NCBI RefSeq assembly: GCF_035084215.1
Contig: NC_090348.1
Coordinates: 26,288,001-26,352,000, forward strand
Length of the DNA stretch: 64,000 bases
Source: Heptranchias perlo
Lineage: Eukaryota
Direction: 5' to 3'
This document shows, one piece after another, positions 3,805 to 56,663 of the stretch (position 1 is the stretch's first letter; each line of letters begins with the position of its first letter). The position numbers and the translations under genes are program-made. A model generated the notes under the pieces. That model ran no database searches and was not told the DNA's origin. It saw nothing but the letters and a program-made list of their open reading frames with translations.

Positions 3805-5932
3805 GAGCTTCACAGGGGCTGCAGCCTCCCACACCCTGTGAACAAATGAAATACCGACTCGTCCAGGCCTGGGAGTCCGTGAAATGGCGTAACCGCCTAT
3901 TGGTCGCGACTGCTCTGTGCAACAATCTCCATCCCCAATGGCATACGGGAGGATCCCCGAGTAGAGAGCCCTCCACTGGGGACCCCGCCTCCGCCGAACG
4001 GCAGGCTGGTACGCCAGGGCATGTCCAGGCGAGAGACGAGGGTGAGGAAGTGGAGAATGTGCAGGAGCAGCCCGTACAGGAAATCCGTCCGCGCACAGTG
4101 AAATTTCACGGAGGGTATTTCCGAGTGATGGCTCAAGTTGTGAGGCACAGCCCCCCCCCGAGGGAGGTTTCGGGGCCTGACGCCTATGAGGAATTCCGTC
4201 CGAACAGGGGTCAGCTCGGATGGGATGGCTCCACACGCTTGAGCCTCCTCCACACCCCAAGTGGAGTCAGGGCCGAGTGCCACTTTCAAAGCCCGGATGG
4301 CGGTGGCCGCGTCCCGGACACGCCTCGAGGACATCCGTGCAGCCAGTGTCCCCAGCGCCATCTAGCCCGCCCCTCTGCCATCTAGTACGTCTCTGACTCT
4401 GGTTACCTTACCGGCCAGGGCCCTCTGCTCCGTCAGCCGCGAGCCGCCGAAGCCAACACCGCCGAGGAACGGATTCCTGAGCAGCGGCTCCTGCAGGACG
4501 GCCGCCACCCCTGACGGGGGAGAGCACCGGCAGGAGGCAACCATATTCCAGACCCTGATCAGATCCTGGTAAAAGACAGGCAGCTGCCGCAAAGACGTGC
4601 GGCCGCCTGGTAACGTGATAAACAGGAGCTGCTTGTCGTAGTTCAGACCGTGCAGCCGGCGGAAGAAATATGTCGCCAGTGCACACCATCTAGGAGGATC
4701 CTCAACGTACAGGTATCGCTGCAGGGTCCGAAGGCGGAAAGTCGCCACCTGGGTCGGACGCACACCAGCCCCTGACCACCCTCCCTAAGCGGGAGACTCG
4801 GGACCGCAGCAGCGACCCAGTGTATCCTTTTGGCCCAGCAGAAGTCGACGAGCTTCTTCTGAATCTTGGCGACAAACTCAGAAGGAGGGATCAAAGTGAC
4901 CAACTGGTACCACAACATTGCGGCTACCAGCTGGTTTATGACCAGCACTCGATTCCTGTAGGATAACACTTGGAGCAGTCCTGTCCAGCGCCCTAGGCGA
5001 GCGGTGACGTTGGCCTCCAGCTCTTGCCAGTTCGCCGGCAAGGCTTCCTCGGCAGGGCTAAGGTAGACTCCCAGGTACCGGAGGTACGTGGTGCTCCAGG
5101 CAAAAGGCCGTAGCTCCTCTGGCAGGAAGTCCGCCCGCCACTGACCCACCAGGAGTCCGGAACATTTCTCCCAGTTGATCCTTGCGGAGGACGCGGCAGA
5201 GTACACCTTTTGGCACTCGCACATCCTCTGCAAGTCAACGGGATCCATGACCATGAGGAGCACGTCATCGGCGTAAGCCGAAAGGACGACCTCCACGCCC
5301 GGCTCGCGCAGAGCCAGCCCCGACAACCTCTTCCGCAAGAGGTGCAGGAAAGGCTCCACGCAGACGGTGTATAATTGGCCGGACATGGGGCATCCCTGAC
5401 GCACTCCTCTCCTGAAACGAAGGGGCGCTGTCAAGGATCCATTAACCTTAATCAGACACTTCACGGCAGCGTACAGAAGTTGGATCCAGGCGACAAAATG
5501 CGACCCGAACCCGAAAGCGAGCGGAGTCCCGAATAAGTACTCGTGATCCACCCTGTCGAACGCCTTCTCCTGATCCAGGGAAAGGAAGGCGACCGACAGC
5601 CCAGCCCTCTGGGAATGGTGGATCAGGTCCCGGACGAGGTGGATGTTATCGTGGATTCTCTGGCCCGGGACCATGTAGGACTGGTCGGGATGGGTCATGT
5701 GGGCCAGCATGGTGCCAAGGCGAGCAGACATCGCCTTGGCGAAGACCTTATAATCCGTGCTGAGGAGGGAGACCGGGTGCCAGTTTTTAAGGTGATGGAG
5801 ATCCCCCTTCTTCAGCAGCAGGACGACGACCGCCCTGCGCCACAAAAGCGGCATCTCCCCGGTCGCCAGACTTTTCCCCCAGGACCCGTGCGTAGTCGCG
5901 TCCCAGAAGGCCCTAAGGAACTCCATGGTCAG
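3805..5932 (-). mobile_element. Tx1-type (L1 group) non-LTR retrotransposon fragment: RT plus C-terminal region, truncated and frameshifted
   Basis: ORF 4643-5926 has KNWHPVSLLSTDYK, LDQEKAFDRVDH, GVRQGCPMSG, AYADD; downstream frames give GWRLLHRAVATN. Confidence 0.88.
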
Positions 5933-7167: not shown

Positions 7168-10100
7168 GTAAGTGCTGTAATAGGTTATGTTGTGTTTCTA
7201 AAGCAATTAGTTCTTTTGTTTTTAATGGATGCAATTAGGGCTTCTACGGAGCAGTGTAAAAAAAAATGTTGAAACATAATTTGCAATTCTTCGTCTCCCA
7301 CAAAATATTAAAAAATTTAAAAACAAGCACAAACCACACTTCTAAATGTTATGATTGTTTCTATAATTCATATATTTGGATGCTGTTTGTTTCAATAATG
7401 ATACACCTGCTGCAGAATAAATGAGTGGCTGAATGACTGATGCAAGTACTTCTGATTTGAAATTGTTTTAAGATGCCAGTGTCTAAATAATTTTTAGCTG
7501 AATATCCAGCAGGCAGTGCTGAGTGGTTTCCCCTACAGGGAGGAAAATTGGAAGGTCTGCCACGTAGTTGCTACTGTACTCCTCCAAATAGTTATCTATA
7601 GATCAGTGTTGAAGGAGGCAAATTAGTCTGGGTGGAAATTAATCCTGATGTACCTCCAGCAATCCCAGCTCAGGTGAAGACCTGTCAGAACAAAGTAAAG
7701 TTCCTTCTATATTGTCCCATCAATATAACTAAACCTTATTCTTCAGCTAACCCACTGTGACATTTACATTTTTCATACCAGCTATCCTCGTGACACCTCT
7801 AAGTGAGATTATGAAATTTTCTACCCAAATTATGGTATACTGGGAATCCAACACGACTAGAAAATTGAGTCAAAATTGCCTGAACTGATTTTTTTTATGT
7901 AGAACTCTAGCTGGCAAATAGAGAACTTCTTATGATCCATTTCAATAATCTTGGTAATATTCTGTTTTGGATACATTTTAGCCCAGTTTGCAGTATTGAA
8001 ATACCAGAGCGACTGTCCACTTCCTATGAGAAACTGAAATACTATGGTCTTGTGGAAAGATGCATCCCACTATCTGTTCGAGAAGCCACTGAAGAGGAAA
8101 TTATGTTGGTTCACAGGTTGTACATACATTTAAACTTAAGTACTATTCTGTACTTTTTCCCCCCTTTGAGTGAAAGGTTGGGCAGCAGACCATCTTCCTT
8201 AACTCTGCCTATGCTGGTATCATTCCTAAGGGTATCTAAGCTGACTTGTCATTCAATCTTTTCTCCCCTTTCTTTGTGGCTAAGCAAGCTAGTCTCTATT
8301 TGCATCTCTCCTAGATAGTACTGCTGTGTAGATATTTATTTTACAAATTTCTAATGTCAAATGTTGTGGGACCACATGCTGTTCCTTCATACCACCTATT
8401 TATATACTTTTAAAAACTGTGCTGTACAGTAAAAATCCTGCAATTCCACACTATTTTAATAATTTTATTCAAGATTACTGGCTTCGAACACTGCAGTGAA
8501 GACCTCCAAGAACGCTGTGAATTAATGCCCCTGTTTATATAATAATTTGCAAACTGGAGTGTTTTGCATTTGAGAGTACAGGTACTTCAGACTCCAATGC
8601 AAACAGAGTGGATTCCAGAGAACTGCAATTATTGATTTGCTAACATTCACTTTGGTTAAAAATGTGCTCGAGAATTAAGAATTTTAGTGGGTGCACTATC
8701 TTGTTCTTGTCTTTTTAGTAGATTAAAGCTATATTTCTCAAAACGTTTATGTTTGTTCCTCAATAATATGCCCATCTCTAATTTTACTTCAGATATTTTT
8801 TTTTAAAAATTCGTTCACGGGATGTGGGCGTCGCTGGCAAGGCCGGCATTTATTGCCCATCCCTAATTGCCCTCGAGAAGGTGGTGGTGAGCCGCCTTCT
8901 TGAACCGCTGCAGTCCATGTGGTGACGGTTCTCCCACAGTGCTGTTAGGAAGGGAGTTCCAGGATTTTGACCCAGCGACAATGAAGGAACGGCGATATAT
9001 TTCCAAGTCGGGATGGTGTGTGACTTGGAGGGGAACGTGCAGGTGGTGTTGTTCCCATGCGCCTGCTGCCCTTGTCCTTCTAGGTGGTAGAGGTCGCGGG
9101 TTTGGGAGGTGCTGTCGAAGAAGCCTTGGCGAGTTGCTGCAGTGCATCCTGTGGATGGTGCACACTGCAGCCACAGTGCGCCGGTGGTGAAGGGAGTGAA
9201 TGTTTAGGGTGGTGCATGGGGTGCCAATCAAGCGGGCTGCTTTATCTTGGATGGTGTCGAGCTTCTTGAGTGTTGTTGGAGCTGCACTCATCCAGGCAAG
9301 TGGAGAATATTCCATCACACTCCTGACTTGTGCCTTGTAGATGGTGGAAAGGCTTTGGGGAGTCAGGAGGTGAGTCACTCGCCGCAGAATACCCAGCCTC
9401 TGACCTGCTCTCGTAGCCATAGTATTTATATGGCTGGTCCAGTTAAGTTTCTGGTCAATGGTGACCCCCAGGATGTTGATGGTGGGGGATTCGGCGATGG
9501 TAATGCCGTTGAATGTCAAGGGGAGGTGGTTAGACTCTCTCTTGTTGGAGATGGTCATTGCTTGGCATTTATCTGGCGCGAATGTTACTTGCCACTTATG
9601 AGCCCAAGCCTGGATGTTGTCCAGGTCTTGCTGCATGCAGGCTCGGACTGCTTCATTATCTGAGGGGTTGCGAATGGAACTGAACACTGTGCAGTCATCA
9701 GCGAACATCCCCATTTCTGACCTTATGATGGAGGGAAGGTCATTGACGAAGCAGCTGTAGATGGTTGGGCCTAGGACACTGCCCTGAGGAACTCCTGCAG
9801 CAATGCCCTGGGGCTGAGATGCTTGGCCTCCAACAACCACTACCATCTTCCTTTGTGCTAGGTATGACTCCAGCCACTGGAGAGTTTTCCCCCTGATTCC
9901 CATTGACTTCAATTTTACTAGGGCTCCTTGGTGCCACACTCGGTCAAATGCTGCCTTGATGTCAAGGGCAGTCACTCTCACCTCACCTCTGGAATTCAGC
10001 TCTTTTGTCCATGTTTGGACCAAGGCTGTAATGAGGTCTGGAGCCGAGTGGTCCTGGCGGAACCCAAACTGAGCATCGGTGAGCAGGTTATTGGTGAGTA

Positions 10101-13100
10101 AGTGCCGCTTGATAGCACTGTCGACGACACCTTCCATCACTTTGCTGATGATTGAGAGTAGACTGATGGGGCGGTAATTGGCCGGATTGGATTTGTCCTG
10201 CTTTTTGTGGACAGGACATACCTGGGCAATTTTCCACATTGTCGGGTGGATGCCAGTGTTGTAGCTGTACTGGAACAGCTTGGCTAGAGGCGCAGCTCGT
10301 TCTGGAGCACAAGTCTTCAGCACTACAGCTGGGATGTTGTCGGGGCCCATAGCCTTTGCTGTATCCAGTTCACTCAGCCGTTTCTTGATATCTCGTGGAG
10401 TGAATCGAATTGGCCGAAGACTGGCTTCCGTGATGGTGGGGATATCGGGAGGAGGCTGAGATGGATTATCCACTCGGCACTTCTGGCTGAAGATGGTTGC
10501 AAACGCTTCAGCCTTGTCTTTTGCACTCACGTGCTGGACTCCGCCATCATTGAGGATGGGGATGTTTGCAGAGCCTCCTCCTCCCGTCAGTTGTTTAATT
10601 GTCCACCACCATTCACGACTGGATGTGGCAGGACTGCAGAGCTTTGATCTGATCCGTTGGTTGTGGAATCGCTTAGCTCTGTCTATAGCATGTTGCTTCC
10701 GCTGTTTAGCATGCATGTAGTCCTGAGTTGTAGCTTCACCAGGTTGGCACCTCATTTTTAGGTACGCCTGGTGCTGCTCCTGGCATGCTCTTCTGCACTA
10801 CTCATTGAACCAGGGTTGATCCCCTGGCTTGTTGGTAATGGTAGAGTGAGGAATATGCCAGGCCATGAGGTTACAGATTGTGCTGGAATACAATTCTGCT
10901 GCTGCTGATGGCCCACAGCACCTCATGGATGCCCAGTTTTGAGCTGCTAGATCTGTTCTGAATCTATCCCATTTAGCACGGTGGTAGTGCCACACAACAC
11001 GTTGGATGGTGTCCTCAGTGCGAAGACGGGATTTCATCTCCACGAGGACTGTGCGGTGGTCACTCCTACCAATACTGTCATGGACAGATGCATTTGCGAC
11101 AGGTAGATTGGTGAGGACGAGGTCAAGTAAGTTTTTCCCTCGTGTTGGTTCGCTCACCACCTGCCGCAGGCCCAGTCTAGCAGCTCTGTCCTTCAGGACT
11201 CGGCCAGCTCGGTCAGTAGTGGTGCTACCGAGCCACTCTTGGTGATGGACATTGAAGTCCCCCACCCAGAGTACATTTTGTGCCCTTGCTACCCTCAGTG
11301 CTTCCTCCAAGTGGTGTTCAACATGGAGGAGGACTGATTCATCAGCTGAGGGAGGACGGTAGGTGGTAATCAGCAGGAGGTTTCCTTGCCCATGTTTGAC
11401 CTGATGCCATGAGATTTCATGGGGTCCAGAGTCAATGTTGAGGACTCCCAGGGCCACTCCCTCCTGACTGTATATCACTGTACCGCCACCTCTGGTGGGT
11501 CTGTCCTGCCGGTGGGACAGGACATACCCAGGGATGGTGATGGAAGAGTCTGGGACGTTGGCTGAAAGATATGATTCTGTGAGTATGGCTATGTCAGGCT
11601 GTTGCTTGACTAGTCTGTGGGACAGCTCTCCCAGATGTTAGTAAGGAGGACCTTGCAGGGTCGACTGGGCTTGGTGTTTTGCCGTGGTCGTGTCCGGTGC
11701 CTAGTGGTCCGATGCCGGGTGGTCCGTCCGGTTTTATTCTTATTATGACTTTTCGTAGCGAGATTTTACAACTGAGTGGCTTGCTGGGCCATTTCAGAGG
11801 GCAATTAAGAATCAACCACATTGCTGTGGGTCTGGAGTCACATATAGGCCAGACCGGGTAAGGGCGGCAGGCTTCCTTCCCTAAAGGACATTAGTGAACC
11901 AGATGGGTTTTTACGACAATCCGGTAATTTCATGGCTATCATTACTGATACTAGTATTTTAATTCCAGATTTTATTTTAATTAATTGAATTTTTTAATTA
12001 ATTAATTGAATTTAAATTCGCCAGCTGCCGTGGCGGGATTTGAACTCATGACTCTGGATTTTAGTCCAGGCCTCTGGATTACTAGCCCAGTAACATAACC
12101 ACTATGCTACCGTACCCGGTGTCAGATTGAACTAAGAGACTCACAACATGGTCGCAACTGAGTTATAGGCATAGTGGTTATGTTCAAGTTTTGTATTTCA
12201 TGTATCTTTCTGCTTTTGTCAGTTCCTCGCTTGATGCACTCTTTAAATATCTGAGTGCTATTGTTCCTTGGCTTTGATCTAACTTTTCATTCTGATCTCT
12301 TTTTTTTAACTTTTGAATTACTGAATGTTGATTTAATAGTTAATTCAGTGTACGCAAGAATGATTCCAGGCATGTAGATAGTTTGCAAAATGCAAGCGGC
12401 AAAATACTTCCTGTCAAATGTAGTCTTTTATGTAGGACAACATATAGGAGGAGAGCTTGAGTGCTCTTATTTTAGTAAGTGGGTTGTCATTTGATATTGA
12501 AGTGCATAACCTGTTACATGACAGAAAATGTGTATATATTATAAAATTTAGACACCCTTGGGAATGGTACCAGCATAGGCAGAGATAAAAGCAAACATTG
12601 CACTAAGTTTTGGGGAATGAGTTGGTGCCTCAGTAAATGTCTTGTGACAATGTGTAATTTGGATCTTCTAACCATTTCCAATAAATTTGAGTTCAACAAA
12701 TACTAATTTGCTCCTATAATATGTGACCAGTTTTGAAGCTGTGGAGTATGCCCAACCAGAGGCAAACAGCCTGTTTCCACAGTTCTGCCAATGCCACTTG
12801 GCATTGTTCCTAGGACATGTCTGCCTTGCCTTGTCAACCCAGTCAAGATCAGAAACTCAAACCCATATCCTCCCATTCTGATGCAGGCCATTGGGCACCT
12901 AACAATTTTTAATTAGTTAAACTGATGTTTGAGCTAGATCCCATTAAAGTGTTTTCTTTCTTTAGCCTGGATTACATAGAAGCTGTGAAATCTACTGCCT
13001 CTATGAACATTGAAGAGTTGAAGACCTTTTCATACAATTATAATGATGTATATTTTCACCCTGTAAGTAAATTTTGCACTTGCAACAAAAAAAAAATTCT

Positions 13101-44179: not shown

Positions 44180-45502
44180 TCACAGCACTCACATCCAATC
44201 ATGAATAGTGGGGGACAATTAAGCAACTAATAGGATGAAAAAATTCTTTGAACGTGCCCATCATATAGACAGGGCAGAAGCGTTTGCAACTATCTTCACG
44301 AGAAGGGCCACGTGGACCATCCTTCTCAGCATCCTCCTGAGATGCCATTCTTCATCCAATTCGATTCACTCCACATGACATCAAGAAATGGCTGAGTGCA
44401 CTGGACACCACAAAGGCGATGGGCCCCGACAACAGCCTGGCTGTCGTACTGAAGATCTGTGCTCCAGAACTAGCCATGTCTCTAGCCAAGTTGTTCCAGT
44501 ACAGTTACAAAACTAGCTTCTATCTGACAATGTGGAAAATTGCCCAGGTATGCCCCGTCCACAAAAACAGGACAAATCCAACCTGGCCAATTGCTGCCCT
44601 ATCGGCCAGCTTTCAATCATCAGCAAAGTGATGGAAGGAGCCATCAACAGTGCTATCAAGCGACACTTACTCACCAATAACCTGTTCACCAATACTGAGT
44701 TTGGGTTCCACTAGGATCACTCAGCCTCAGACCTCATTACAGCCTTTGTCTAACATGGACACGAGCTGAATACCAGAGATAAGAGTGACTGCCCTTGACA
44801 TCAAGGTAGCATTTAACTGAGTGTGGCACCAACGAGCCCTAATCAAACTGAAGTCTAATATGTGGTAAGTAACATGCCCCACAAGTGCCAGGCAATGACA
44901 CTCTCCAACAAGAGAGAGCATAACCACCTCCCTTTAACATTGAATGACATTACCATCACCAAATGCCCCTCCACCAACATCCTGGGGGGTTACCGTGACC
45001 AGAAAGTCAACTGGACCAGCCACATAAATGCCGTGGCTACGAGAGCATGTCAGAGTGTGATGAAATACTCTCCTGGATGGGTGCAGCTGCAACAACACTC
45101 AATACCATCCAGAACAAAGCAGTCCGCTTGATCAACACCTCACCCACTAGCCTAAACATCCACCCCTGGCATGCTGTGGCTGCAGTGTGTATTATCTGCA
45201 GGATGCACTGCAGCAACTCTCTAAGACTTCTCTGGCAGTGTCTCCCAAACCTGTGACCTATCTTGAACGACAAGGGCAAAAGGTGAATGGGAACACCATC
45301 ACCTCCAAGTTCCCATCCAAGTCACACACCATCTTGACTTGGACATATATCATAATTTCTTCATTGTTGCTGGATCAAAATCCTGGAACTCCCTCACCAC
45401 GTGGACTGCAGCGTTTCAAGATGATGGCCCAGCACCACCTTCTTGGGCAATACATGCCAACCTTGCCAGTGACACCCACATACCAAGAATGAATTTTAAA
45501 AA
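44180..45502 (+). mobile_element. Older, deleted copy of the 8795-12121 LINE family
   Basis: MGPDN...[15 protein letters not shown]...[12 protein letters not shown]; same 3' tail ending CCCACAT...GAATTTTAAAAA. Confidence 0.88.
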
Positions 45503-47078
45503 TTGAGATGTACTTAGGTATGTAACAGGGATTTAATTGCATGCTGAATGAAGATACTAATTGGAATGTTGTGCATTTCTGTTTTCTGTTAAGTTGTAGA
45601 GAAGTTAGTACCATGTAGGTTGAGGTTCATTGCCAATTGTGTTTTCAAGATTAATGATACTTGGTTTAATATTGATCTCAGGGCGGTGGCTGGCATAGTG
45701 TATTAACCTGGGATCAAATCCTGGGTAATTATATTAATTATACATCCCCAGTTCCTGCATTCATTATCAACTCAGCTAATTGTTGTGAAAGCCTCAAAAT
45801 GTTGTTACAAAGATCAACTTCTAATCAAGGTGTTAATTGTCACTCAATATAAAGGCACCAAATGCTAGTCTTGTTGATTTTCCTTCACCATTTGATAGTT
45901 TTTGCAGGACCTCTATAACGTCAGAATGGATACTTTAGCATACGTGAAGCATTTGCAAACACCCTACCAGTCGATTAGTATCAGCTTACAAAGAGAACTT
46001 TGAACAGTTCGTATTAAGTTTCGCAGAAAGCCAGTTGGTTACATTAATAAAAATTCAGAATCTATAAAGTGATTCTTGGGAGAAATTTCTGCTTTTTTAC
46101 GCTAGTTTTGCACCCTGATTTCAGCAAAATTGGCCAAACTAGTGCAAAAGCGTGGGGAATTTTTAAACGTAAATGAGTTACACCCAAAGCCATTTACACA
46201 TGTGTTTTCGGTGATCTTTTACACTGGGTCAAGATTCAATTTGCCTGAACCAGGCCCCACCCACAAAACTGGTCACGTTCCCAGGCACTTGTAGGCGCGT
46301 TTTAAAAGTTTTTTCATATCAAAAAAACTTAATTTACTAAGAAACTGACTAGTGTACACCAACGAAACTAGTAAATGGTTCTATACATTTTTTTAAAAAT
46401 TTATTTTCAGTGATTTTAAATCAGGTTATTCACAGGTGGAGGACTGGACAGCCTTATTAAAAATGCTTATTTTTAGTGATAAACCCATTTTCAGCTGAAT
46501 TAATAAAACTGCACCAGGTTACCACTCTTAAATACATTGAGGAATACTTTTTAATGGAAAGGAGAAAAAAAAACGATTATGTTCTATTACACTGCCCGAT
46601 TGTGCTAGTTCATGGAAGATTTTACGTTTGTGATTATGCAAATACATTTTAGCAGAAACTTGAAGCCGAATCTAACCAACGCATTTTGGGCACAATTTCC
46701 TGATATAGCAGAAACTATTTCTGTACGTGGCACTGCAGTCTCGATTATTGTTATCTGATTTTTAAAGTTGCACTATCACTTTTACAAGGTTGTATATCCC
46801 TGAGTTGAAGCTGCACTAATTGTTCCATTATTCCCTGTTTATGTGTGTACCTACTTCTAATTACACATACAAGATTGTACCACGACCATTGAATTGTACT
46901 GTATGTACCATTGCAAATTGTACGACCTGTATTGTATTGTTTGAAGCATGATTTGAATTGCATTGTATGTTTACAAATTTTATGAATAAAATATTTTGAA
47001 ATTAAAAAATACAAAATTCTCAGTAATAGCTGTAATCTAAAGGCATACACAAACATCGCTGGATGAGGAAAATTGAAT

Positions 47079-55165: not shown

Positions 55166-55254
55166 GAATGTTTACACTGTTGTAAAGTCTGGGAGGCCCT
55201 TGGCAAGTGTTTCCTATTATTCAATGTTATGTGGTTAATTAAGGGGTAATTTCC

Positions 55255-56663
55255 TCTCATGGTTATGGTCCTGGATTAACAAGTCAAAGGTCATGAGTTC
55301 AAATCCCACCATAGCAAGTTGTGAAATTGAATTCAATAAATCTGGTCACTTGTGGCTCGCACTGGAAAAAATGATCATGAAAGTTGAGGGATTGTTGTAA
55401 AAATCCAACTAGTTTATTAATGTCCTTCAAAGAAGAGAAAGAACCTGCTGCCATTATTCAGTCTAGCCTACATATGACTCCAGTCTCACACCATGTGGCA
55501 GTATGGATACGAAATTGGCTAAGTGAAAGGAAACACAGAGTAGTGGTGAATGGTTGTTTTTTGGACTGGCGGAAGGTATAGAGTGGTGTTCCCCAGAGGT
55601 TGGCACTGGGACCACTGCTTTTTTTGATTTTATATTAATGACTTGGAATTGGGTGTACAGGGCAAAATTTCAAAATTTGCAGATGTCACAAAACTTGGAA
55701 GTGTAGTAAACAATGAGGAGAATGGTAATATACTTCAAGGGGACATAGACATGCTGGTGGAATGGGCGGACACATGGCAGATGAAATTTAAAGCAGAGAA
55801 ATGTGAAGTGATACATTTTGGCAGGAAGAATGAGGAGAGGTAATATAAGCTAAATGGTACAATTCTAAAAGGATGCAGGAACAGAGAGACCTGGGGTATA
55901 TGTGCACAAACCTTTGAAGGTGGCCGGACAGGTTGAAAAAGGGGTTTAAAAGCATAAGGGTTCTTGAGCTTTATAAATAAAGGCATAGAGTACAAAAGCA
56001 AGGAAGCTATGTTGAACTTTTATAAAACACTGGTTCGGTTGCAAATGGAGTATTGTGTCCAATTCTGGGCACCGCATTTTAGGAAGGATGTGAAGGTCTT
56101 GGAGAGGGTGCAGAAAAGATTTAGTGGAATGGTTCCAGGGATGAGGGACTTCAGTTATGTGGATAGACTGGAGAAGCTGGGGTTGCTCTCCTTAGAGCAG
56201 AGAAGGTTGAGAGGAGATTTGATAGTGTTCAAAATCATGAAGGGTTTAGATAAAGTAAATAAAGAGAAACTGTTCCCATTGGTGGGAGGGTCAAGAGCCA
56301 GAGGACACAGATTTAAGGTGATTGGCAAAAGAACCAAAGGTGACATGAAGAAAAACATTTTTACGCAGTGAGTAGTTATGATCTGAAATGCACTGCCTGA
56401 AAGGGTGGTGGAAGCAGATTCAATCGTGGCTTTCAAAAAGGAACTGGTAAATACTTGAAGGGAAAAATTTGCAGGGCTATGGAGAAAGAGCGGGGGAATG
56501 GGATCAACTGGATTGCTCTTACAAAAGATGGGCCAAATGGCCTCCTTTTGTGCTGTAACCGTTCTATGATTCTACATGGTTGACTCTTAATGCCCTCAGC
56601 ATAACTGGGTATGGGCAATAAATGTTACCTTGCTGGTGTCACCCACATCTCAAGAATAAAAAA
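55255..56663 (+). mobile_element. tRNA-head SINE made of the 5' leader and 3' tail of the 8795-12121 LINE family, split by a nested CR1
   Basis: 55255-55497 matches the LINE head and leader (B box at 55295-55305, TAATGTCCTT, TGACTCCAG). 56576-56663 continues TGGTTGACTCTTAATGCCCTC then ATGGGCAATAAATG...CCCACATC-A-tail. Confidence 0.8.
55497..56575 (+). mobile_element. 5'-truncated CR1 LINE nested in the SINE
   Basis: ISKFAD, WQMKF, EYCVQFWAP, RRLRGDLI; tail TTCTATGATTCTA. Confidence 0.9.

Follow-up and report, generated by a model that had tools for sequence, protein, structure and literature searches.

RNA polymerase II (Pol II) transcribes LINEs (PMC10886601) and SINEs cannot encode a protein (Kojima 2018, PMC5786205). 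These papers state it as a rule that LINEs are Pol II-transcribed and coding, and SINEs Pol III-transcribed and non-coding. Several described systems lie close to this boundary. In SINE2 elements with bipartite LINE parts (PMC5786205), a head of tRNA origin that contains an A and a B box is followed by a middle body and a LINE-type 3' tail, the head being joined to a LINE that is already deleted. RTE-1_DAn and elements related to it (PMC5786205) are LINEs of the RTE clade that contain tRNA-like sequence; the source says neither where this sequence lies nor whether it acts as a promoter, and includes no analysis of T-runs, and they are compared here by description. Zenon, a single-ORF LINE of the CR1 group (PMC6740152), has one EN-RT ORF, a poly(A) tail and internal-deletion derivatives. 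Among cartilaginous fishes, SacSINE1 and the CmiSINEs are tRNA-headed retroposons described in PMC5499810 as non-coding and as combining Deu or CORE domains with tails of the L2 type (again a comparison by description).

The element analysed here, from the shark Heptranchias perlo, shares the tRNA-derived head with these retroposons, tRNA-like sequence within a LINE with RTE-1_DAn, and the single ORF, tail and internal-deletion derivatives with Zenon. Its short derivatives have the SINE2 organization, but here a coding LINE of full length carries the head, and deletion by itself produces SINEs, at many different junctions. These derivatives also differ from Persaeus, the Zenon SIDE, which is reported to have neither tRNA homology nor a Pol III promoter (PMC6740152). 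A literature search revealed no paper on a Pol III-transcribed coding LINE or on this family (a Repbase or Dfam entry may exist), and Atlas and cluster look-up provided no family name.

Organization of the window copy

The window (the whole 64,000-nucleotide stretch analysed) carries, on the minus strand at 12117-8795, a broken member of a young, abundant LINE family (Table 1). The original prediction described a single insertion bounded by a TCAGAT TSD, with a tRNA-like A and B box, a leader of about 350 nt, no ORF1 and one EN-RT frame with two lesions. All of these were found, the TSD being separated from the head by four nucleotides. At this site, other copies show short inverted copies of the first bases of the head. 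One of the lesions is the loss of 19 bp near 11629, the other a stop codon at 10800-10798. An in-frame stop (11768-11766) lies 9 nt upstream of the GCT codon. Using a strict search, TSDs of at least 5 bp were identified in 10 of 63 copies.

Table 1. Coordinates of the features of the element and of related copies in the window
Feature	Position	Strand	Remarks
TSD copy beyond 5' end	12122..12127	+	TCAGAT
Extra nucleotides between TSD and head	12118..12121	-	Four nt
tRNA-derived head	12028..12117	-	tRNA-Thr-like; 5' end fixed, 8 nt before A box
A box	12099..12109	-	TAGCATAGTGG
Duplicated anticodon arm	12054..12090	-	12090-12074 and 12069-12054
B box	12036..12047	-	
Spacer	11948..12027	-	AT-rich, no T4; differs among generations
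Leader core	11798..11947	-	Conserved; predicted multi-helix RNA, candidate translation element
Hairpin	11772..11797	-	7-nt anticodon-type loop with AGC at its middle
In-frame GCT codon	11757..11759	-	Complementary to the hairpin loop AGC
Endonuclease and reverse transcriptase frame	8863..11765	-	Single frame
3' UTR	8810..8862	-	Stem-loop with AATAAA at 8854-8849
T5 and A9 tail	8796..8809	-	T5 at 8809-8805
TSD copy beyond tail	8789..8794	+	TCAGAT
Older copy	44180..45510	+	5'-truncated and internally deleted; 72-82% identical
Decayed head-and-leader fragment	55235..55500	+	Oldest generation

A fixed, tRNA-derived 5' end

The family is active, and its 5' end is fixed at the tRNA-derived A/B-box head. 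Full-length copies start 8 nt before the A box, in the tRNA-Thr-like head, and continue through the 350-nt leader into one EN-RT frame. Of the 30 best whole-element matches, 19 extend into the first 13 nt and are flanked by unrelated sequence; a different 5' extension occurs in none. When the head itself was used, 26 of 30 matches continue into the ORF, one does likewise with an internal deletion and three jump to the 3' tail. The tRNA head expected of full-length copies is family-wide and extends across three generations, and no different 5' end or ORF1 occurs among the sampled copies.

The consensus positions of the A box are kept in all three generations with the exception of a single C-to-T change, and the B box is the same in the majority sequence of each. 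Variants common to at least three young copies fall at none of the 11 A box sites and none of the 12 B box sites. Both boxes survived a duplication in the intervening part of the head and turnover of the spacer. The duplication, of the anticodon arm, widens the distance between the boxes and is absent from the oldest generation. Because of it, the young head escapes standard tRNA detection: ARAGORN with default settings found no tRNA in the window and the Rfam tRNA model gives the young head 18.7 bits, short of the cut-off of 29. With relaxed settings ARAGORN calls the oldest heads, but with mixed isotypes, and the anticodon therefore does not fix the parent tRNA.

The family is young (sampled copies differ from the majority sequence by a median of 1.2%) and the leader cores of the three generations are 83-90% identical. 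Each generation has shed SINE-like derivatives composed of head, leader and 3' tail, generated by internal deletion with many different junctions; all keep the 3' UTR segment listed in Table 1. Of the old-type junctions, 6 of 40 lead into the ORF, as do the long old copies L343-L345. Sequence depth drops approximately 30- to 100-fold from the 3' to the 5' end (runs X5, X6 and X11).

Coding capacity and relatives

The element has the properties of a LINE: dispersed copies, 5' truncation, an A-tail, intact members under purifying selection, and an APE endonuclease and reverse transcriptase in one ORF (PF14529, PF03372 and PF00078 above cut-off). Like SINE2 elements, it also begins at the 5' end with a tRNA-derived head in which A and B boxes are present. 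It is not short and non-coding, as SINE2 elements are, but 3.3 kb long with a 973-codon ORF; its internal-deletion derivatives alone are short and non-coding.

In intact copies the first Met of the 973-codon frame is codon 250, and no in-frame AUG precedes it. A frame of 960 codons or more is kept by 17 of 53 full-length headed copies, and 66 of 143 shared variants are synonymous versus 407 of 1504 singletons. The RT tree places the element in a 45-member clade (support 1.0) together with amphioxus and crab proteins and separate from the Tx1-like and CR1-like ORFs of the same genome; no labelled Zenon reference is included. The labels CR1, Tx1 and Zenon for groups in this tree are those that we take to apply.

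One relative within the clade (support 1.0), L061, is available as DNA. It has no match to the A/B head or leader, carries a Met before the EN domain and contains 20 T4 runs. Neither an A/B box pair nor a leader match was found upstream of 26 metagenome LINE ORFs, and viral contigs contained no relative.

Scarcity of T-runs

In the original prediction, the sense strand was described as lacking T4, with about seven TTT and common AAAA runs. The 3312 nt of the window copy contain no T4, exactly seven T3 runs and 21 runs of A4 or longer, and the older copy is similarly free of T4 over 44180-45494. Base shuffling of the window copy gives an expectation of 4.25 T4 runs (P=0.005) and 20.9 runs of T3 or longer (T3+), none of 1000 shuffles being as low; with dinucleotide shuffling these become 2.2 (P=0.115) and 14.1 (P=0.01). 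In the intact ORF of copy L010, synonymous-codon shuffling gives 12.4 T3+ runs where five are observed (P=0.001). None of 30 TTN codons follows a T-ending codon (base rate 0.20).

T-runs are rarer than in LINEs of equal T content in the same genome and in the headless relative L061. The L010 ORF has 1.7 T3+ runs per kb compared with 7-11 per kb in seven same-genome Tx1-like ORFs (20-22% T), and the observed/expected ratio is 0.40 in the element but at least 0.74 in all 61 metagenome LINE ORFs. Aligned copies totalling 318 kb contain 17 T4 runs.

The absence of T4 alone is a weak signal. The ORF contains no T4 where 2.0 are expected (P=0.09). An internal GTTTTC, linked to three other rare variants, is common to four copies (L004, L006, L013 and L152), and a T4-bearing source must therefore have made at least four insertions. 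Substitutions creating T4 show no visible deficit relative to others (the sites are few), a metagenome fragment, L079, also lacks T4 in 1489 nt (1.8 expected), and non-canonical terminator motifs (TTVTT and similar) show no significant depletion. For human Pol III, T1-T3 caused no termination and T4 terminates at 18-75% (PMC5725217); the strong T3 signal is therefore not directly a termination signal. Of the proposed selection for Pol III read-through, the T-run rarity stands, but strict selection against T4 is weakened by the P value of 0.09, by the location of the signal at T3 and by the four insertions with an internal T4.

The proposed terminal T5 is present in the window copy but is ruled out as an encoded family terminator: of 106 3' ends sampled, 88 have a single T before the A-tail and 11 have at least four. 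An AATAAA is located 40 nt before the tail, which fits Pol II equally well.

Leader and start of the ORF

In PMC10516663 and PMC12221177, the dicistrovirus IGR IRES is described as occupying about 190 nt in front of an ORF that does not start with AUG, with an anticodon-type hairpin beside a GCU or ACN codon and a small UUU-containing stem-loop. The leader resembles this arrangement. The hairpin and GCT codon are kept in young and old generations, although no GCT was seen in L343, the only long copy from the oldest generation. In contrast to the viral IRES, loop and codon are complementary over 3-4 bp only, without covariation, Rfam matches up to E=10 include no IRES family, and the alignment fold of the leader contains one compensatory pair and differs in topology. 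The predicted fold of the leader core is no more stable than those of shuffled sequences (z -0.2 to -1.4), and of the type 6 (IGR) elements neither PKII with an L1.1 loop nor PKIII with SLIV/SLV was recovered. By analogy with factor-free viral IRESs, the anticodon-like hairpin could pair with the GCU codon at the start of the ORF, but we regard this pairing as doubtful.

The variable base of the hairpin loop resembled a wobble position in a 76-codon upstream frame, a reading that was rejected: hypervariability of T in CTAG extends over the whole element (13% versus 1%), and the AUG of this upstream frame is ACG in the old majority. A frameshift model is unsupported.

Which polymerase?

Taken together, these sequence signs suggest, with a probability of roughly 0.55, that the element is an autonomous single-ORF LINE with a captured tRNA gene promoter and that it is transcribed by Pol III. 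The captured tRNA gene would serve as the promoter, and Pol III would produce a 3.3-kb coding RNA from the A/B-box head.

It is possible, if on the whole improbable, that the element is instead a Pol II LINE with a captured SINE as 5' UTR. The boxes would then act as a promoter for Pol II or as a chromatin element, or else Pol III would make the short derivatives alone; the RNA would bear a cap and be polyadenylated at AATAAA, re-initiation would give access to the ORF, and the T-run scarcity would be due to composition and mutation bias. LINEs often swap 5' UTRs, according to the part of PMC4758252 available, AATAAA indeed precedes the tail, and the weak T4 signal and the mobility of the T4-bearing sub-lineage are as would be expected, as are the general depletion of TT dinucleotides (84 versus 99) and strong context-dependent mutation in the shark genome. 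However, same-genome LINE ORFs under equal mutation bias show no T3 depletion, the boxes have kept their consensus over three generations, as has the 5' end its place 8 nt ahead of the A box, and cap-scanning would be poor with nine upstream AUGs before the ORF.

Mixed use, in which the head fires both polymerases, we consider decidedly unlikely. Pol II or host read-through RNA would encode the protein and Pol III RNAs would be the templates, selecting mildly against T-runs. This would accommodate leaky T4 tolerance together with kept boxes and the abundance of short derivatives, but nothing points directly to a second promoter and the ORF has no AUG under either polymerase. Finally, the idea that a SINE and a LINE fragment became fused here by chance can be dismissed almost entirely: SINE-like elements with an identical head exist, but the same junction occurs in dozens of independent insertions, in the older generations and in one contig from another organism (run X10, 11357-11972), and the boxes have stayed joined to the ORF, with internal deletions, through three generations.

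Under Pol III transcription, an uncapped RNA might carry a structured leader with an anticodon-codon mimic that loads the ribosome on a non-AUG codon, a vertebrate analogue of the dicistrovirus IRES; this extension is speculative and on balance improbable. The internal deletions would then give ready-made SINEs whose conserved body is a translation element, a notion to which we attach equally little weight.

Implications

If Pol III transcription is correct, the family would provide a natural coding transcript of 3.3 kb made by Pol III, which would break the LINE/SINE rule and raise the question of how an uncapped, AUG-less RNA is translated. IGR-type IRESs in LINEs would force a rethinking of ORF2 (PMC3894237), and the family provides a concrete candidate for such an IRES. 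Whichever polymerase is used, deletion within a tRNA-headed LINE constitutes a one-step route to SINEs that was repeated in three generations, and in this family the SINE body can be traced to the LINE leader.

The window copy

The original prediction described one insertion between two TCAGAT copies, with a tRNA-like A box and B box, a leader of about 350 nt, a single endonuclease-reverse transcriptase (RT) frame carrying two lesions, and T5 ahead of an A-tail at its end. All of this was recovered, the tail being A9. The 3312-nt body has, as had been counted, no sense-strand run of four T (T4) and seven of three (T3), and T4 is also absent from the older copy over 44180-45494. Base shuffles of the body give 4.25 T4 (P=0.005) and 20.9 runs of three or more (T3+); dinucleotide shuffles give 2.2 (P=0.115) and 14.1 (P=0.01). 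Three other RT-bearing stretches of the window contain 3-6 T4 apiece in 0.8-0.9 kb. The window copy is probably intronic: it lies antisense, about 670 nt downstream of an exon whose match to histone deacetylase (PF00850) is weak, with E=0.034, which is below cut-off.

Features in the window (window positions)
Feature	Position	Strand	Remark
tRNA-headed LINE (window copy)	12117-8795	-	
A box	12109-12099	-	
B box	12047-12036	-	
Inverted copy of first head bases	12121-12118		directly upstream of 5' end
Inverted near-copy of A-box region	12180-12168		13 nt; 50 nt upstream of window copy
Older copy	44180-45510	+	5'-truncated, internally deleted
Other RT-bearing repeats	4958-5872, 1567-2014, 55589-56206	-, +, +	22-34% identity to protein of tRNA-headed family
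Exon	7971-8117	+	

Copies, 5' ends and age

The search of the species' own genome (3.25 Gb; shark-like on the strength of 78% identity to part of a shark gene model, P0070) yielded 5815 candidates; 40 of them were scored and 30 retrieved. Nineteen of the retrieved copies, among them the one in the window, extend into the first 13 nt and have unrelated flanks, and the remainder are truncated at the 5' end; none of the 30 has an alternative 5' extension or an ORF1. A query with the head gave 30 more loci (one being the window copy): 26 continue into the ORF, one enters it with an internal deletion and three skip to the 3' tail. The tRNA head is a family-wide feature. In a pooled sample, partly head-selected, 56 of 64 5' ends map to the first 11 nt, and 34 coincide with the first G. 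The whole element is also covered by assembled contigs from runs of other organisms, of which one from run X10 crosses leader and ORF, and loose contig ends in X10 and X6 lie at 12117, the first base of the head; such contigs are silent on start, strand and cap.

Divergence from the majority has a median of 1.2% (122 aligned segments, 8 duplicate loci dropped). A frame of at least 960 codons is intact in 17 of 53 full-length headed copies, and most of 49 protein matches have frames that stay open over about 973 codons. Synonymous changes are enriched among shared variants (66/143) compared with singletons (407/1504).

Several observations concern mutation and integration. At 13 CTAG sites (reference copy L010), T is off-majority in 13% of copy-sites, compared with 1.1% for other T, mostly through transversions to G or C; this T is an unusual hot spot of mutation and can be compared with CpG decay. 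In L003, L022, L211, L220, L222 and the window copy, the first bases of the head recur as short inverted copies directly before the 5' end, which suggests that the cDNA end folds back as it integrates. Family copies are inserted in same-family copies (L002, L014, L024, L167), and the family therefore does not avoid itself as a target. One 5'-truncated intact copy has identical flanks on several unplaced contigs (L026, L028-L030, G000:C1317, C1370), which indicates amplification as part of a larger repeat. Elsewhere (G000:C38, C725, C1626, C424; for example, L171, L174), many intact RT frames of 1311-1319 codons, which we take to be Tx1-like, are spaced about 7 kb apart, which suggests either tandem arrays or a target that is itself repeated.

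Older generations and SINE-like derivatives

Diverged-head searches identified an old generation, whose head and leader share about 76% identity with the young ones, and an oldest one, whose tRNA head is plain and unduplicated. The B box is identical across the majorities of all three generations, the A box differs at free positions and by one C-to-T change, and between generations the head gained a second anticodon arm and the spacer turned over. No head of the three contains T4. A degenerate pattern built on the oldest head, its degenerate places chosen with a tRNA-Thr sequence in mind, has eight matches, two of them tRNA-Thr(TGT) genes; 'Thr-like' thus denotes a fit to the sole isotype compared rather than the best match.

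Long copies of the oldest (L343) and old (L344, L345) generations carry leader, endonuclease and RT sequence. Among 40 old-type leader ends fetched from 289 pattern matches, six are followed by the start of the ORF, 26 switch to the 3' tail, with many different switch points, and eight are unmatched. The head-ORF junctions show that head and ORF have long been one unit. SINE-like elements, with 42 exact bipartite matches, arose repeatedly from the headed LINE by deletion. The anatomy, age and SINE production of the family are established.

T-runs

Against controls, the predicted scarcity held for T3 and not clearly for T4. The intact ORF of L010 (19% T) has five T3+ where synonymous-codon shuffling gives 12.4 (P=0.001), but its lack of T4 compares with only 2.0 expected (P=0.09). 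TTT/TTC is 3/16, and TTN follows a T-ending codon in 0 of 30 cases. Seven ORFs of the same genome that we take to be Tx1-like (20-22% T) have 2-9 T4 and 14-36 T3+, with T3 depletion in none, and three short, presumably CR1-like ORFs have 4-5 T4. Across 61 metagenome LINE ORFs the T3 observed/expected ratio has a median of 0.98 and a minimum of 0.74, compared with 0.40 in L010. Older segments, picked by likeness to the young copy, remain T3+-poor (3.6 and 5.3 per kb, compared with 7.8 and 8.8 shuffled). The sole in-clade relative with DNA, L061, is headless, has Met before its endonuclease and carries 20 T4, though its sequence is AT-rich and it is only one example. A fragment outside the tree, L079, lacks T4 as the L010 ORF does.

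The terminal T5 did not prove to be a family trait: 88 of 106 tails have a single T and 11 have four or more. T-runs at other T/A borders of old copies point to mutation after insertion. T-A(n) borders of tails and internal A-runs (for example, L020, L245, L261-L280) are often converted, once inserted, to TTTTAAAA-like palindromes, creating false terminators at tails. Four separate insertions (L004, L006, L013, L152) all carry an internal GTTTTC together with the same three further rare variants, so that one T4 was no barrier to their source element. Substitutions creating T4 are not visibly rarer than others (43 sites), and TTVTT-type motifs are not depleted. PMC5725217 reports that in human cells Pol III is not terminated by T1-T3 and is terminated at 18-75% by T4. 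Such leakiness excuses the T4-bearing lineage, but the inertness of T1-T3 means that the strongest signal, the depletion of T3, has no direct cause.

Leader and translation start

The first AUG of the ORF is at codon 250, within the protein, and an in-frame stop lies just upstream of the ORF; nine leader AUGs open only short or out-of-frame ORFs. In gene-caller output, most database relatives start with Met. Conservation within the leader is highest over its final 190 nt, just ahead of the ORF, at 83-90% from one generation to another. These 190 nt are predicted to adopt a common fold of several helices, in which a single compensatory pair is two-sided; they fold no better than shuffles, and finish in a predicted hairpin with a 7-nt loop, C-U-AGC-A-A. 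The loop AGC could pair with GCU: an in-frame GCT-ACN-AAR stands 13 nt past the hairpin, conserved in the young and old generations although the preceding 8 nt changed; no GCT can be seen there in L343.

PMC10516663 and PMC12221177 describe dicistrovirus IGR IRESs, 126-205 nt long, as having an anticodon-codon mimic that adjoins a non-AUG first codon, often GCU, with ACA/ACU in some types. The family's leader would resemble these in having an anticodon-type loop near a non-AUG GCU codon, but its predicted pairing is 3-4 bp, without covariation. The likeness is partial, the predicted fold shows no PKII/L1.1, and an Rfam search of the leader gave no IRES match. An IGR-IRES-like mimic is a doubtful lead; PMC3894237 goes no further than suggesting that LINEs might have such IRESs.

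Transcription and known elements

The polymerase and mode of initiation we infer from sequence. Our preferred reading, to which we give a probability of about 0.55, is that Pol III would start from the internal A/B boxes, read the entire element and terminate in flanking DNA; the uncapped RNA would be translated through the leader, and the A-tract and 3' stem-loop would serve priming. The main rival, an appreciably less probable one, holds that Pol II transcribes the LINE and that its 5' UTR derives from a SINE. An AATAAA sits 40 nt ahead of the tail and would suit Pol II as well.

PMC4758252 describes SINE heads derived from LINEs and refers to Tx1 families whose 5' ends come from snRNAs, PMC6740152 describes Zenon as a single-ORF LINE whose deletion derivative has no Pol III promoter, and PMC4494074 uses internal oligo-T to exclude Pol III for SINEU, which is the T-run logic of the present family in reverse. 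The family is not described in the parts available of PMC5499810, PMC11481361, PMC10294476, PMC6685494 and PMC10886601, nor did the literature search, which lay outside Repbase and Dfam, find a description.

This LINE lineage, whose 5' end is a tRNA promoter of the SINE type, is real, old and still rich in young copies.
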